From: Prevotella sp.
GTDB taxonomy: Bacteria; Bacteroidota; Bacteroidia; Bacteroidales; Bacteroidaceae
NCBI GenBank assembly: GCA_017960525.1
Contig: JAGCZA010000049.1
Coordinates: 8,911-72,910, forward strand
Reading direction: 5' to 3'
Length of the DNA stretch: 64,000 bases
The notes beneath the pieces are model-generated. The model was given only the letters and a program-made list of their open reading frames with translations. It was not told where the DNA came from and did no database searches. How positions within the stretch are numbered: position 1 is the stretch's first letter; every line of letters begins with the position of its first letter. Of this stretch, positions 27,717-42,802 are shown in pieces. A program made the translations under genes and the position numbers.

Positions 27717-28982
27717 TCACGGTGTTTCGTTTTTCTTTCCGTGACCACCACGCCTGCCGTGGCCTCCACGTCGGTAACCTCTACCCTTGCCTTTTAGGCC
27801 TCTTCCCCTGTCTGAGCCGCCGGAGGTCTTGTATTCGGGAGTCTCACCCAATTCTTCCGGCAGCGGCAGTTTCTCCACTTCTTTCTTCAAGAAAGCCTCA
27901 ATTTGCTTGAAGCGGCGTATGTCCTGGTCGCCGCTGACCAGGGTGATGGCCTGGCCGTCGCGGTCGCAACGGGCTGTGCGGCCTATGCGGTGCACGTAGT
28001 CCTCTGCATCGTGGGGTACGTCGAAATTGATGACGATGGCGATGTCGTCGATGTCGATGCCACGGGCCACAATGTCTGTAGCCACGAGCACATCCACCTG
28101 TCCGCTCTTGAAGCGGTACATCACGTCGTCGCGCTCGGCCTGGGTCAGGTCTGAGTGCATCGGGGCGCAGTTGATTTTCAGTTTCTGCAGGGCGCGGTTG
28201 ATGTCTTTCACGCGGTCTTTCTTGCCGCAGAAGATGATGACGCGCTTCAGGTCGCCGTTCTTGAACAGATGGTTGATGATGCCCAGTTTCTGAGGCTCAT
28301 AGCAGACGTAGGCCATTTGCCGGATTTTGTCGGCAGGACGGCTCACTTTCAATTTTACCTCTACGGGATTTCTCAGCAGCGAGACGGCCAGTTCGCGGAT
28401 TTTCGACGGCATCGTGGCCGAGAACATCACCTTCTGGCAGTCCTTGGGCAGCAGGGCGTTGATTTGCATAATGTCCTCCGAGAAACCCATGTCGAGCATA
28501 CGGTCAGCCTCGTCGAGCACGAAGAAACTTGTACGGGAGAGGTCGAGGTTTCCCACCTTCAGATGGCTCAACAGTCGGCCTGGCGTGGCAATCACCACAG
28601 GTGCGCCGCCGCGCAGTCCGCGTGTCTCCTGGTCGAAGCGCGAGCCGTCGTTGCCGCCGTAGACGGCTATCGAGCTCACGCCGTCGAGATAGTAGGCGAA
28701 GCCCTGCATGGCCTGGTCAATCTGCTGTGCCAGTTCTCGCGTTGGCGCCATCACCACGCAGTTGATGGCATCTTCAGGAAATCCGCCGTCGTCAAGCATC
28801 GACAGGATGGGCAGCAGATAGGCCGCCGTTTTGCCGGTGCCCGTCTGTGCCACGCCCAAAACGTCGTGTCCGTCAAGTATTTCTGGAATACATTTCTCCT
28901 GAATGGGTGTCATCTCCTCGAAGTGCATGTCGTAGAGCGCATCGAGGATGTTGTCGTTCAAATAAGTCTCTTCAAATGTCAT
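27717..28982 (-). CDS. DEAD-box RNA helicase
   Basis: AQTGTGKT, PTRELA, DEAD, SAT and HRIGRTAR; start moved to MTFEE. Confidence 0.93.
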   Translation of the reverse strand: MTFEETYLNDNILDALYDMHFEEMTPIQEKCIPEILDGHDVLGVAQTGTGKTAAYLLPILSMLDDGGFPEDAINCVVMAPTRELAQQIDQAMQGFAYYLDGVSSIAVYGGNDGSRFDQETRGLRGGAPVVIATPGRLLSHLKVGNLDLSRTSFFVLDEADRMLDMGFSEDIMQINALLPKDCQKVMFSATMPSKIRELAVSLLRNPVEVKLKVSRPADKIRQMAYVCYEPQKLGIINHLFKNGDLKRVIIFCGKKDRVKDINRALQKLKINCAPMHSDLTQAERDDVMYRFKSGQVDVLVATDIVARGIDIDDIAIVINFDVPHDAEDYVHRIGRTARCDRDGQAITLVSGDQDIRRFKQIEAFLKKEVEKLPLPEELGETPEYKTSGGSDRGRGLKGKGRGYRRGGHGRRGGHGKKNETP

Positions 28983-29031
28983 AACAATAGTCCCCCAAGC
29001 CAGGGACTTCATACTTTTTTGTTTTCGGCTA

Positions 29032-29062: not shown

Positions 29063-29313
29063 ATCTTTTCCGGGAAACATATTAAAGAGAGTGCAGAAAC
29101 TGAAGTATTTCTTTTGATATATCCATCACTAAAACTTTAAATTGGTGCAAATTTAGTGATTATTTTCCAATTATCGGCTCATCGTGGGCTTAAAAATGCA
29201 TAAATTACACGAATTTTGAGCCGATTCGGTCTGAAAATTCGCAAACACGCTCGCGTGTCGGGGCCATCACCTCGCAGTTGATGGCACCTTCAGTTGATCC
29301 ACCCGTAATGCTT

Positions 29314-29453
29314 CATCCGTCCAAAGCAAAAGGAGGCTTATTTCGGACTTAAAGTTTGCTCCGTCCAAACCCGCAAATTCTCGAGAGAATTTATGCGTTT
29401 GGACGAACCTTTCTACCCGTAAGGTTAGTCCTTTGTTTTGGTTTGGACGGATG
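29314..29453. repeat. Nested palindromic element built on the TTTGGACG core
   Basis: Outer CATCCGTCCAAA/TTTGGACGGATG; inner CGTCCAAAC/GTTTGGACG enclosing AAATTCTC/GAGAATTT. Confidence 0.7.
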
Positions 29454-29520
29454 GGAGTGGAAAGCGTGTCAAATCCAAAGACTTCCAAGAGTGGACTCAT
29501 GCACATTTTCTTGTAATTTG

Positions 29521-29551
29521 TTTGCCAATTCCATACTTTTTCGTACTTTTG
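29521..29551 (+). promoter_or_regulatory. Promoter preceding a ~290-nt leader
   Basis: TTTG-19 nt-TACTTTTG. Confidence 0.7.
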
Positions 29552-29557
29552 CACCGT

Positions 29558-29850
29558 GCTAACACTCTTCTGGGGTGGAACGCACAGATTTCATTTGCTC
29601 AACCGCGACTCGAACTGGACCCTCGAAAGAGCGTAACGGGCAAAAAGTAGGAAGGTTATAATACCAGTTATTCCTATATCTATACTCCAAGAGGCTTGCG
29701 CATAGCGTAGGTTTCCCATAGGAGTATAGAGGTTGGTCCAGACCTGAGTCGCGTATGGTGAAGACCTACGCTTTTCTTGTTTCCAAGGTTAGTGTGGGTT
29801 TCCCAGAGACGAGAGTAAATTTAGTACTAACCAATAAAAACAAAGAGCAA
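29558..29850 (+). ncRNA. Candidate structured leader RNA, unclassified
   Basis: At least six complementary segment pairs of 6-17 bp (see findings). Confidence 0.5.
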
Positions 29851-30759
29851 ATGAAAATAACTCGTTTATTACTCCCCATCATCACATTGTTGCTGATGAC
29901 AACTTCCATTCATCGTGTCACGGCGCAAACCCTTCAGGTGCGCTATTCGAGTAGTAACACAGACCATTTATTCGGCGACGTGAACGGCGACGATAATGTT
30001 GATGTGGCAGACATCGCTGCAGTCATCAGCGTTATGGCTGGGAAATTCGATGTCTCGCCCGAAGAGGCTGACGTGAACGACGACAGCAAAGTCGACGTGG
30101 CCGACATCGCAGCCATCATCACGGCTATGGCTGAAGTTAAAGATGATGAAACCTCCTATACATCCTGTCCCGACGAGAACCACCCACATGCAATTGACCT
30201 CGGCCTACCCTCTGGCACAAAGTGGGCGTGCTGCAACGTGGGGGCGAGCACGCCGGAAGGATACGGGAATTATTATGCGTGGGGAGAGACGCAGCCGAAA
30301 AGCGAGTATTACTGGAGTACGTATGCATATTATCATAATTATAATGGTAATAGCAATGTCGATAAAGATGAAATTGTGGACATTGGCTCCGACATTGCCG
30401 GCACAGAATATGACGCAGCTACGGCCAACTGGGGCGCACCTTGGCACATGCCAACTCATGCGCAGGTTGATGAATTGATGAATAACACGATGTCCACTTG
30501 GACTATCCAGAACGGTGTGGAAGGACGTATGTTTTATGGCTCTAATGGGGGTAACATTTTCCTGCCCGCTGCGGGCTACAATTTGGGGTCTGGCATCGTT
30601 GGCAAGGGTTCAGGCGGCGAATACTGGGTGTCGACGATTGTCGAGGGACTGGGTAGCTTTAGCGATGCGAATTATTTCGGTTTCAATGACGACGATAAGT
30701 ATATTAGGTTTGGTTGGGTCAGCCGCTGCGCAGGGATGACGGTGCGCCCTGCGCGTTAA
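29851..30759 (+). CDS. Secreted dockerin plus DLGLPSG (Fibrobacter major-paralog / lectin-like) domain protein
   Basis: Signal peptide; dockerin at 29974-30135; IDLGLPSGTKWACCNVGA..YGNYYAWGET; C-terminal YW.ST...R..G.TVRP. Confidence 0.75.
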   Translation: MKITRLLLPIITLLLMTTSIHRVTAQTLQVRYSSSNTDHLFGDVNGDDNVDVADIAAVISVMAGKFDVSPEEADVNDDSKVDVADIAAIITAMAEVKDDETSYTSCPDENHPHAIDLGLPSGTKWACCNVGASTPEGYGNYYAWGETQPKSEYYWSTYAYYHNYNGNSNVDKDEIVDIGSDIAGTEYDAATANWGAPWHMPTHAQVDELMNNTMSTWTIQNGVEGRMFYGSNGGNIFLPAAGYNLGSGIVGKGSGGEYWVSTIVEGLGSFSDANYFGFNDDDKYIRFGWVSRCAGMTVRPAR

Positions 30760-40333: not shown

Positions 40334-42787
40334 TTATTCTATTGTTATCTTTGTACACTTGACATTATCTCCGTTGAGCACGAAGACACCTCCCCACCAC
40401 TGCTGGGTGTATGCTGCGTTGAGCATTTCCTGTGTGAGCGTGAGACCGAACTTGCCGCCATTGCCAGCGAGGTCGTATTCGGTGAACTTGCCTCCTTCCG
40501 TGTCGTTGCCAAAGCTGCAGATGCTGGCGTAGGTGGGTCCCCAGTGGCCTTCAACGATCTGGAGCTTCCAGTCGGAAGCCAGCGGAGTGAGGTAGAAGTA
40601 AATGGTCTGACCGGCCTTTGCCTCTACTGCGGCCAGCTCTGCGCCTGCGTCGGAGAGGACGTAGGGCTGGTTGCCCCAGTCGTCGGCAATGGCTTCGCCT
40701 TCCCACAGCGTTTCCTCGACCGACTCATAGTGGGTGGTGGTGACGCGGTCGACGACCACGTTGTCGCCATTGAGCACGAACACACCGCCCCACCACTGCT
40801 GGGTGAACGCAGCGTCGAGCATTTCCTGAGTCACTTCAATGCTGTAGTAGCCCTTGTTGGCCTCGAGGTCGTACTCAGTGAACTTGCCACCTTCTGTGTC
40901 GTTGCCAAAGCTGCAGATGCTGGCGTAGGTGGGTCCCCAGTGGCCTTCCACGATTTGGAGTTTCCAGGCAGCATCCAGCGGCGTGATGTGGAAGCTGATG
41001 ATGTCGCCAGCGACGACGCCTGCATCCTTCAGTTCCTGTCCGGCATCGGAGAGGACGTATGGCTGGTTGCCCCAGTCGTCGGCCACAGCCTGACCCGTCC
41101 ACAGCACGGTCGTCACCTCAGTATTGGGGATGAAGTCCATCGTGTAGGTAATCTCACCGTTAGAAGAGATGAGGCGAACCTTCGAACCCTTCTTGGCTTT
41201 GGCGGGAATGCCTATGATCAGCTGGCCAGCATTGGTCAGCACATACTGGCAGGCCTCGCCGTTGATTTCGACACCCGTCAGCTTGTCGCCATTGGCAACT
41301 GGCAGTGCGAATGAGTCACCAGCCTTCAGTTCGGCATCCTCGGCAGGCATTTCCTTGAAGTAGCAGAACACAGCCTCTTTAACAGTGACGGCAGGAACGT
41401 TGGCAACGGTCGTACCATTGGCCAGCGTCAGTACCGGACTGCCTGAAGTGGCGTTCATTGGAACAGTGAGCGTAATGGCAGAAGCAGAGCCTTCAACCTT
41501 GACGACATCTGACTCGCCAAACTGCACTTTCTTCACCAAGTCGAGATTGGTACCCTTGATGGTGAGTGTGCCACCAGCACTTACAGTTGTGTTGTCGTAA
41601 CCATTTACGGTAGGCTTCACCAGCGTGAAGGCCACTTCGACGGTTTCTCCGTTGGCCATCACCAGTGCCAGATTGCCCTCAACAGCCGTCTCAGGCATGG
41701 CCTTTACGACCACCTTGTCGGCACTTGCCTCAATCTCGCCACCGTCGACAGTAGCATTGCCAGTGGGGAAGTTGACAGCGGTCACCAAGTCCATGTCGGC
41801 ACCGCTGATGGTGAGTGCCTGGCCAGCCTTGACAGGCTTCGGAGCAGCCACGCCGTTGGTGGGCTTCACCGTGTTCAGCGTTCCCACGGGAACCTCAACA
41901 CCCGACTTGCAGACGAGCACGATGTCGCCACTCAGAGCCACAGCGGGCAGAGTGAGCGTCAGACTGGTGCGGTCTTCCGACACCGTGATGTCTTCGGCAC
42001 TGACGCCGCCGATGGTCACGTCGGCGACCACGTTGAAGTAGGTGCCTGTGAACGTGAGCTTCTCGCCAGCCTTGGCGGTAATCGCGCCCTGGGCATCAGC
42101 CTCGTTGCGGCCTTTCAGCTTGCTCACCTCGGGCAGGCCAATCTCGATGGCTTCCTCGGTCTGCATAATCTGATACTCCACCTTGCTCTTGTCGATGACC
42201 GTCAGGTCGGCTGTGTAGAGTTCCATCTTGCCAGTCTTGGCCTCTTCAGGTACTGCGACCTCGATGGCGTAGCGTGTGTGTGAGGCAAAGTCCTGCTCGC
42301 TGACAACCACATTGTCGGCAAATGCCAGCGAATGGATGAGGTTCAGATAGTCACCCTCAATCTTGATGACATCGCCAGGCATAGCCTTAGCTGGAACCTT
42401 CGTGATTTCGATGCCCTCAATATATTTGAGGTCGGTCTTTGTGACAATCGTCTGGTTGGTCTTCGTCACCAGTTTCACCAGTCCTTCCACGGGGCCGTCT
42501 TTGGGAACAGTCACTTGGATTTCACTGGGAACGCCGGCCTGCACCACCTTGATGTCGGTGATGGTGATGCCTTCGGGAAGGATGACCTGGCTCACTTGGT
42601 CGAGGTTGCTTCCTAAGAAGCGAAGCTGACCACCGCGCATTACAGGCGACGGGCCGTACACATTGAGCGAGACACCGCTCTGATACTGGTTGGTATCCAG
42701 GTCGTCGCTGCTGCACCCTGCCAGCGACAGCCCCAGGAGGGCTATCACTGCCAGTGCGAATATATTCTTAAAGTTTTTCATAATCAT
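40334..42787 (-). CDS. Surface glycan-binding lipoprotein: IPT/TIG repeats plus two duplicated Trp-rich modules
   Basis: Lipobox LAGC; repeated G.NLD.V..V motifs; 132-aa C-terminal duplication. Confidence 0.75.
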   Translation of the reverse strand: MIMKNFKNIFALAVIALLGLSLAGCSSDDLDTNQYQSGVSLNVYGPSPVMRGGQLRFLGSNLDQVSQVILPEGITITDIKVVQAGVPSEIQVTVPKDGPVEGLVKLVTKTNQTIVTKTDLKYIEGIEITKVPAKAMPGDVIKIEGDYLNLIHSLAFADNVVVSEQDFASHTRYAIEVAVPEEAKTGKMELYTADLTVIDKSKVEYQIMQTEEAIEIGLPEVSKLKGRNEADAQGAITAKAGEKLTFTGTYFNVVADVTIGGVSAEDITVSEDRTSLTLTLPAVALSGDIVLVCKSGVEVPVGTLNTVKPTNGVAAPKPVKAGQALTISGADMDLVTAVNFPTGNATVDGGEIEASADKVVVKAMPETAVEGNLALVMANGETVEVAFTLVKPTVNGYDNTTVSAGGTLTIKGTNLDLVKKVQFGESDVVKVEGSASAITLTVPMNATSGSPVLTLANGTTVANVPAVTVKEAVFCYFKEMPAEDAELKAGDSFALPVANGDKLTGVEINGEACQYVLTNAGQLIIGIPAKAKKGSKVRLISSNGEITYTMDFIPNTEVTTVLWTGQAVADDWGNQPYVLSDAGQELKDAGVVAGDIISFHITPLDAAWKLQIVEGHWGPTYASICSFGNDTEGGKFTEYDLEANKGYYSIEVTQEMLDAAFTQQWWGGVFVLNGDNVVVDRVTTTHYESVEETLWEGEAIADDWGNQPYVLSDAGAELAAVEAKAGQTIYFYLTPLASDWKLQIVEGHWGPTYASICSFGNDTEGGKFTEYDLAGNGGKFGLTLTQEMLNAAYTQQWWGGVFVLNGDNVKCTKITIE

Positions 42788-42802
42788 GTTAGGGGCTTAA
42801 TG

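Follow-up and report, generated by a model that had tools for sequence, protein, structure and literature searches.

The pyr leaders (PyrR) and the trp leader (TRAP) of Bacillus subtilis link an anti-antiterminator, an antiterminator and a terminator through segments that each have two pairing partners; conservation is concentrated in the competing strands, and the decision is taken during transcription. The c-di-GMP-I and c-di-GMP-II riboswitches, which precede adhesin, pilus and protease genes in Clostridia, have a folded domain that P1 closes and in which the helices vary and the joints are conserved; their expression platform is an intrinsic terminator, and one genome carries several of them ahead of surface-protein genes. 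The Brt RNAs of Bartonella are self-contained units of a promoter, a structured leader of ~150-300 nt and a terminator, which are repeated before accessory or surface-protein genes and have two mutually exclusive folds. Prevotella-like Bacteroidales dominate human-gut, oral and rumen communities; to our knowledge, very little is known about the regulation of their surface proteins.

The stretch 29558-29850 of the window (a 64,000-nt segment of a Prevotella sp. contig) carries a conserved structured leader RNA that occurs seven times in this genome and is predicted to share the features listed above for the three systems. Unlike the pyr and trp leaders, with which it has no sequence or structural homology, the element has no known binding protein or binding motif, its read-through fold is a four-helix domain and not a single hairpin, and its targets are many unrelated surface-protein genes and not one metabolic operon. 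It differs from the c-di-GMP-I/II riboswitches in having no Rfam match, no GGDEF cyclase in the genome and few conserved unpaired bases that could form a pocket, and from riboswitches with junction aptamers in that the 5' strand of its terminator lies in the apical helix P4 and not in P1. No sequence relation to the Brt RNAs was detected. The original prediction was a structured leader of no known class that controls a dockerin gene and forms either a pseudoknot or a terminator-like fold in a mutually exclusive pairing, and the analysis supports this reading.

Position, promoter and pairings of the leader

The leader and its promoter contain the following features at the 5' end:

near 29558 to the start codon at 29851, + strand: predicted leader RNA of ~290 nt, with a putative start
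29521..29551, + strand: Bacteroidota-type promoter read from the sequence, with the -33 TTTG at 29521-24 and the -7 box TACTTTTG at 29544-51
29563..29577, + strand: 5'-terminal hairpin CACUC / GGGUG, which folds at the same position in relatives

Re-reading the sequence recovers every pairing of the original prediction. CGCGACTC (29604-11) pairs with GAGTCGCG (29746-53) in a helix that grows to 9 bp by G29612-U29745, CTGGACC (29615-21) pairs with GGTCCAG (29735-41), and TCTATACTCC (29679-88) pairs with GGAGTATAGA (29721-30). The loop AGCGTAGGTTTCCCATA (29704-20) is complementary to TATGGTGAAGACCTACGCT (29754-72), which is followed by TTTTCTT. GGTTAGT (29787-93) pairs with ACTAACC (29826-32), in a helix whose end is 18 nt before the ATG at 29851, and GTRGGTTTCCCA is directly repeated at 29707 and 29794. 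The consensus promoter that had been proposed upstream is present, and its type is that of Bacteroidota, not sigma-70 (the sigma-70 scan is empty there); transcription is predicted to start at ~29557-29560. In 49 of 58 family members a TAnnTTTG box precedes the model start by a median of 27 nt, and the 5'-terminal hairpin folds in 92% of these 49 members (mean z -3.5) with differing stem sequences.

The + strand of 29558-29850 shows a minimum free energy (MFE) of -103.2 kcal/mol, against -74.3 +/- 5.2 kcal/mol in dinucleotide shuffles (z -5.57; not one of the 200 folds as well), and the core 29600-29757 reaches a z of -6.39. Since G-U pairs are frequent, as at the last P1 pair (GU:33), and the minus strand of the same stretch folds with a z of only -2.83, the + strand is the RNA strand.

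Family members, distribution and conservation

The element is a real RNA family, present in hundreds of genomes. BLAST against 400 genomes of the same genus gave ~18 homologues with 71-85% identity, and the covariance model built from the aligned homologues (R1; 165 positions, 33 pairs) finds the element in 137 of 401 genomes of the genus, the richest of which have at least seven matches, in 82 of 301 genomes of the family, belonging to 16 of its 35 genera, and in 8 of 300 genomes from elsewhere in the order, spread over seven other families. The Prevotella sp. genome contains seven of the R1 copies. Plasmid and phage collections contained no match to the element, and an exact search with a 17-mer of the 5' leader in a genome contig collection gave chance matches in unrelated phyla only. 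In the 58-member alignment, the bases conserved in at least 90% of members are almost entirely in segments with two pairing partners: UGCUC, GAGCA, AUA/UAUG, the GG/CC of the small hairpin described below, and CUGCGCUUU.

Rfam 15 at gathering thresholds found only two tRNAs in the whole window, and at E<=10 the region 29400-29950 showed only two chance snoRNA matches, none of them inside the structured core 29558-29850. The original prediction had likewise matched the leader to no riboswitch, ribozyme, RNase P, tmRNA or 6S consensus. The Rfam 15 families without a match include 6S/Bacteroidales-1, lysM-Prevotella and sRNA-Xcc1, and since RF02221 (sRNA-Xcc1) has no match in 29400-29950 even at E<=10, no relation to it is supported. 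The element is not described in the accessible parts of a survey of 224 candidate motifs (PMC5737381), of the Segatella copri RNA atlas preprint (10.1101/2024.04.05.588293) or of a 2026 review of gut-commensal small RNAs (PMC13750123), and text searches of the portions of the literature open to them gave no description, although such searches could miss the element under another name.

Within the Prevotella sp. genome, BLAST finds only the first 55-75 nt of the leader (the promoter, the 5' hairpin and the segment ending in ATTTCATTTGCTC) at two other loci, and shows no nucleotide identity among the copies beyond the first ~75 nt. These two loci (42719-42789 and 43813-43891 of contig C6, the second, L004, on the minus strand) carry the promoter of the window, the 5' hairpin and the segment ending in CAGATTTCATTTGCTC, and the switch is absent from both. 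One of them leads almost directly into a pair of small genes (at most 182 aa, and 151 aa). At the other, which precedes an LRR-like secreted protein, the only further element retained is a P0-like hairpin, UUUGCUC...GGGCAAA. This distribution suggests that the promoter, the 5' hairpin and P0 form a reusable module. In one copy of a related genome (L118; G142:C19:18413-18578), whose ORF start is followed by tandem repeats, the two halves of P1 and of P2 are mutually mismatched, as if the copy were chimeric, which suggests recombination between leader copies.

The nested helices of fold A

The read-through fold (fold A) contains four nested helices, P1-P4, listed here with an optional hairpin:

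29604..29612, pairing with 29745-29753, + strand: P1, 9 bp; 7 of 9 pairs changed on both sides, 99.7% paired
29615..29621, pairing with 29735-29741, + strand: P2, 7 bp; 6 of 7 pairs changed on both sides, 99.3% paired
29679-88 with 29721-30, + strand: P3; 9 of 9 modelled pairs changed on both sides, 97.1% paired
29694-29701 with 29705-29712, + strand: P4, inside P3; 6 of 8 pairs changed on both sides, 90.2% paired
29648..29676, + strand: optional hairpin TAGGAA...TTCCTA, carried by the window sequence and, among 16 aligned relatives, by two (L088 and L089)

Covariation in the four nested helices is very strong. Over 41 model-aligned members, 96.7% of the cells of P1-P4 are paired and 389 cells are changed on both sides, where column shuffles give 116 +/- 9 and slid partners about 40-60 (36-59); the alignment was fitted to the model and favours the structure, and the same covariation is plain in a MAFFT alignment with RNAalifold. 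Of the multiloop helices in the original prediction, P3 is confirmed; among the 16 aligned relatives CTC-GAAA-GAG is not conserved and TAGGAA/TTCCTA is an optional insert. The first three bases of the junction GGGCAAA (29638-44) can instead pair with CUC 29622-24, and RNAalifold pairs this CUC with GAG/GGG. An unusually long member (L170, 199 nt) may carry an insert at the position of TAGGAA/TTCCTA.

Competing helices and the terminator-like helix T

Downstream of P3, and within it, the leader shows a further group of pairing segments:

29704..29720, + strand: A1, the P4 3' strand plus loop, which is also the 5' strand of the terminator helix T and pairs with 29754-72
29754..29778, + strand: tail, formed by the T 3' strand (29754-72) and the U-rich TTTTCTT (29772-78), where termination is predicted
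29730..29745, + strand: small hairpin AGGT (29730-33) / ACCT (29742-45), with the P2 3' strand in its loop; 98.2% paired
29776..29787, + strand: hairpin CTTG-TTTC-CAAG, overlapping the U-tract; stems in relatives, read by eye, are CUUAU/AUAGG, CUUGU/ACAGG and CUUUU/GAAAG
29787..29832, + strand: P6 hairpin GGTTAGT / ACTAACC, enclosing A2; pairing kept in variants, by eye
29794-29805, + strand: A2, GTGGGTTTCCCA, a second alternative partner of the tail; the tail-A2 helix is present in the MFE fold of the window

The pairing of loop and tail noticed in the window is conserved across the family: the 17 pairs of helix T are 92.5% paired, 12 of 17 are changed on both sides against ~5.5 in shuffles (GC:14 / AU:13 at one pair), and a U-rich tract follows T in 49 of 58 members. 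A simple terminator scan makes no call at T, because its loop of ~33 nt is long and branched, unlike that of a simple terminator. P4 and T share the strand A1 and both covary, so that a mutually exclusive pairing is under selection. The small hairpin (AGGY/RCCU), whose closing pair is CG in 20 members and UA in 19, has the P2 3' strand as its loop and therefore cannot coexist with P2; since both covary, selection acts on at least two folds. Topologically P3 fits both of these folds, forming a pseudoknot where it is combined with T. Two mutually exclusive helix sets under selection, one of them ending in a terminator-like helix and a U-tract, is, as read from the alignments, the anatomy of an attenuator.

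The direct repeat at 29707 and 29794 turns out to be two alternative partners of one tail segment, in A1 and A2. The tail-A2 duplexes have a mean of -14.4 kcal/mol for cognate pairs, against -12.8 kcal/mol for non-cognate ones. P6, which encloses A2, shows the variants GUUAGU/AUUAAC, GUUAGU/ACUAAC, GUUUGU/ACAAAC and AGUUAGU/AUUAACU, as read by eye.

The 5' segment, P0 and the start codon

Three segments outside the nested helices are involved in a pairing at the 5' side and in a predicted pairing with the translation start:

29589..29600, + strand: 5' switch segment TTTCATTTGCTC, containing the P0 5' strand (29594-29600) and also complementary to the start-codon region
29638..29644, + strand: P0 3' strand GGGCAAA, in the junction; GAGCA is nearly invariant across the family
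29845..29856, + strand: translation start region GAGCAAATGAAA, with the start codon at 29851-53, complementary to the 5' segment

The core of P0 is formed by UUGCUC (29595-29600) with GAGCAA/GGGCAA (29638-43). Among the 58 members TGCTC is conserved in at least 90% and its central GCT in at least 97%, and the informative variants are few: a compensatory UAGCUC/GAGCUA in three members, which supports P0, and a few one-sided breaks. RNAalifold proposed instead a pairing of UUUGC-UCA with UAUGGUGA. Since these pairs are nearly invariant and include many G-U pairs, covariation cannot support them, and P0 with GAGCAA is the better supported pairing.

TTTCATTTGCTC is the exact 12-nt complement of GAGCAAATGAAA (-16.9 kcal/mol). 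Complements of 12-14 nt between the 5' segment and the start region are present in ~15 of 37 leaders, including that of the window, with differing sequences and registers. Over 50 leaders, shuffling the leader raises the unpaired probability of the start region from 0.48 to 0.56 (Wilcoxon p = 3e-4); family-wide this effect is modest, and the pairing is strong only in the subfamily of the window. A search of the Prevotella sp. genome for an antisense partner of UUUGCUCAA gave scattered, uninformative matches only, and no candidate trans factor emerged from it.

Energetics and predicted folding order

At the length reaching the U-tract, fold A is the MFE structure or within a few kcal/mol of it in 38 of 38 members tested, and averages 15 kcal/mol below the nested form of the stop fold (fold B; T plus the small hairpin), which was scored without P3 as the energy model cannot score the pseudoknot of T and P3. 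Since fold A is more stable by this amount, termination would need a kinetic trap or a helper.

When the window sequence is folded at growing lengths, P0, P3/P4 and the small hairpin are predicted first, P1 and P2 once the P1 3' strand is available, and the pairing between A2 and the tail at still greater lengths; the full-length leader has its 5' segment closed on the start-codon region. The P1 3' strand emerges ~25 nt before the U-tract. Before it does, the predicted fold includes P0 in 45 of the 58 members and the small hairpin in 48; afterwards, it includes P1 and P2 in 56 of the 58 and P0 in one. These are equilibrium predictions and do not represent kinetics.

Downstream genes

An ORF of at least 70 aa starts within 140 nt downstream of the element in 50 of 58 members, at a median of 65 nt, and 42 of these 50 ORFs show a signal-peptide-like N-terminus in a crude test. 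The products are unrelated to each other: BspA-type LRR proteins (8 of 39), proteins with Listeria-Bacteroides repeats, InlB B repeats or BACON domains, tail-collar proteins, S8 peptidases, outer-membrane beta-barrels and dockerin proteins. In the window, as had been proposed, the leader precedes a gene for a dockerin surface protein; the other copies precede unrelated surface-protein genes.

29851..30759, + strand: gene for a 302-aa secreted protein with a signal peptide and a dockerin type I domain

In two relatives (L091 in G260:C72 and L133 in G271:C22), the leader is followed by a truncated ORF of 29 or 10 codons with a signal-peptide-like start; here the leader is intact and the gene behind it seems to have decayed.

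Proposed mechanism and alternative explanations

The element is probably, by a modest balance of the evidence, a cis-acting attenuator leader with several alternative folds, which would gate the downstream surface-protein gene mainly by conditional transcription termination. It would take either a read-through shape or a stop-signal fold, and would thus probably be an on/off gate. Covariation shows two helix sets that exclude each other. In fold A, P1, P2, P3 and P4 form together, with A1 locked in P4 and the tail free. In fold B, the P0 loop holds the 5' strands of P1 and P2, the AGGY/RCCU hairpin holds the P2 3' strand, and A1 and the tail form the 17-bp helix T directly before UUUUCUU. From the energies, P0 and the small hairpin would form first on the nascent transcript, and P1 and P2 would be best after the P1 3' strand, so the decision may be a race between refolding into fold A and invasion of P4 by the tail, whose outcome would be set by whatever stabilises or blocks P0. 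As the trigger, the likeliest candidate would be a factor, either protein or RNA, with AUUUGCUC, the nearly invariant 5' segment, as its binding site; polymerase speed or pausing would be the other. In the subfamily of the window a translational lock may be added, as the 5' segment can also pair with the start-codon region. Since this segment pairs in both P0 and the start region, a factor occupying it would open both transcription and translation, and without the factor both would stay closed.

A more specific proposal, offered tentatively and with well under an even chance in our estimate, is that of an undescribed control system for surface adhesins, regulon-wide and belonging to the Prevotella group of Bacteroidales, in which a dedicated trans factor on AUUUGCUC would dissolve the anti-antiterminator P0, allowing read-through, and free the start codon; in each genome one signal would then release both locks on as many as seven or more surface-protein genes that are unrelated to each other. 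If the attenuator reading is right, a single RNA gate would serve BspA-type LRR proteins, Listeria-Bacteroides repeat proteins, dockerin proteins and proteases in roughly one third of the sampled species, which would define a co-regulated surface-protein regulon and a new class of RNA open to testing, be it a riboswitch or a factor-dependent attenuator, with a handle on its signal.

A small-molecule or second-messenger riboswitch appears unlikely. Fold A would then be the aptamer (P1, an internal loop, P2 and the P3/P4 three-way junction), the ligand would block the terminator as in an ON switch, and the copies would constitute a surface-protein regulon like those of the c-di-GMP riboswitches of Clostridia, all of which is in keeping with the junction architecture, the variable helices and conserved joints, the several copies per genome ahead of adhesin-like genes, and a terminator that competes with an element of the folded domain. 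As for a possible ligand, a diadenylate cyclase (DAC) domain is present, encoded at C53:18925-19278 of the Prevotella sp. genome (G000), so c-di-AMP is made, and c-di-GMP is unlikely, since GGDEF (PF00990) has no match in this 94%-complete genome, in which the controls respond. However, nearly every conserved base has a second pairing partner, which leaves few conserved unpaired positions for a pocket, a universal metabolite would not usually have a sensor spread so patchily (137 of 401 genomes in the genus, 16 of 35 genera), and none of the known riboswitch models matches. The concentration of conservation in competing strands, and not in unpaired junction bases, together with this patchy distribution, favours a macromolecular or kinetic trigger over a small-molecule pocket.

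Even less likely is that the RNA is itself the product, either as a terminated transcript of ~220 nt acting in trans (a small RNA or a protein sponge) or as a static, non-switching fold whose tertiary pseudoknot would stabilise or localise the mRNA. The leader comes with a promoter of its own, begins with a hairpin and ends in a terminator-like structure, P3 and T would be compatible as an H-type pseudoknot judging by strand order, and small RNAs derived from riboswitches and leaders exist in other bacteria, which counts for this explanation. It does not account for the constrained spacing and orientation of the downstream ORF (median 65 nt, 50 of 58) or for the covariation of both P2 and AGGY/RCCU, which are mutually exclusive; in addition, the sequences of P1-P3 differ between copies, so that they have no common seed apart from the switch segments. 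Very improbable, finally, is an element acting as DNA (a mobile promoter cassette, a MITE or a recombination site) in which inverted repeats only mimic RNA helices. The multicopy and patchy distribution, the chimeric look of the G142:C19 copy with its mismatched P1/P2 halves, and the recurrence of the promoter and first 55-75 nt at two other loci of the genome speak for it, but helix sequences differ completely between copies with pairing kept, the many G-U pairs would be A-C mismatches on the opposite strand, the copies of the genome share no BLAST identity beyond the first ~75 nt, and neither target-site duplications, nor transposase genes, nor plasmid or phage matches were seen.

Neighbouring sequences and gene calls

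The tail AUG at 29755 is conserved, and an attenuator with a leader peptide (trp/his type) was considered, starting either at this AUG or at the UUG of UUGCUC; no conserved peptide was found among the members. The frame is not conserved, since indels that are not multiples of three shift it between members, and the leader peptide was rejected. Upstream of the promoter, the CGTCCAAA/TTTGGACG repeats (29313-29463) were considered as an operator and rejected as well: they are absent from the other six copies and thus form a separate repeat element. Inverted CGTCCAAA/TTTGGACG units make up short intergenic repeat arrays throughout the genome, with 488 units and 95 clusters of at least three. A gene encoding a DEAD-box RNA helicase (27717-29012, minus strand) is divergent from the leader across an intergenic region of 840 nt. 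Since no such helicase was seen beside the other six copies, as judged from ORF N-termini only, this adjacency is probably a coincidence. ORF finders and public gene calls alike give 334 aa for the dockerin protein, which fits the in-frame ATG at 29755 (ORF 29755-30759). This ATG is inside the terminator tail, and the signal peptide begins at 29851, so the 334-aa call is probably a mis-called start; in practical terms, the public calls match an ATG inside the RNA (29755) and not the one at 29851.
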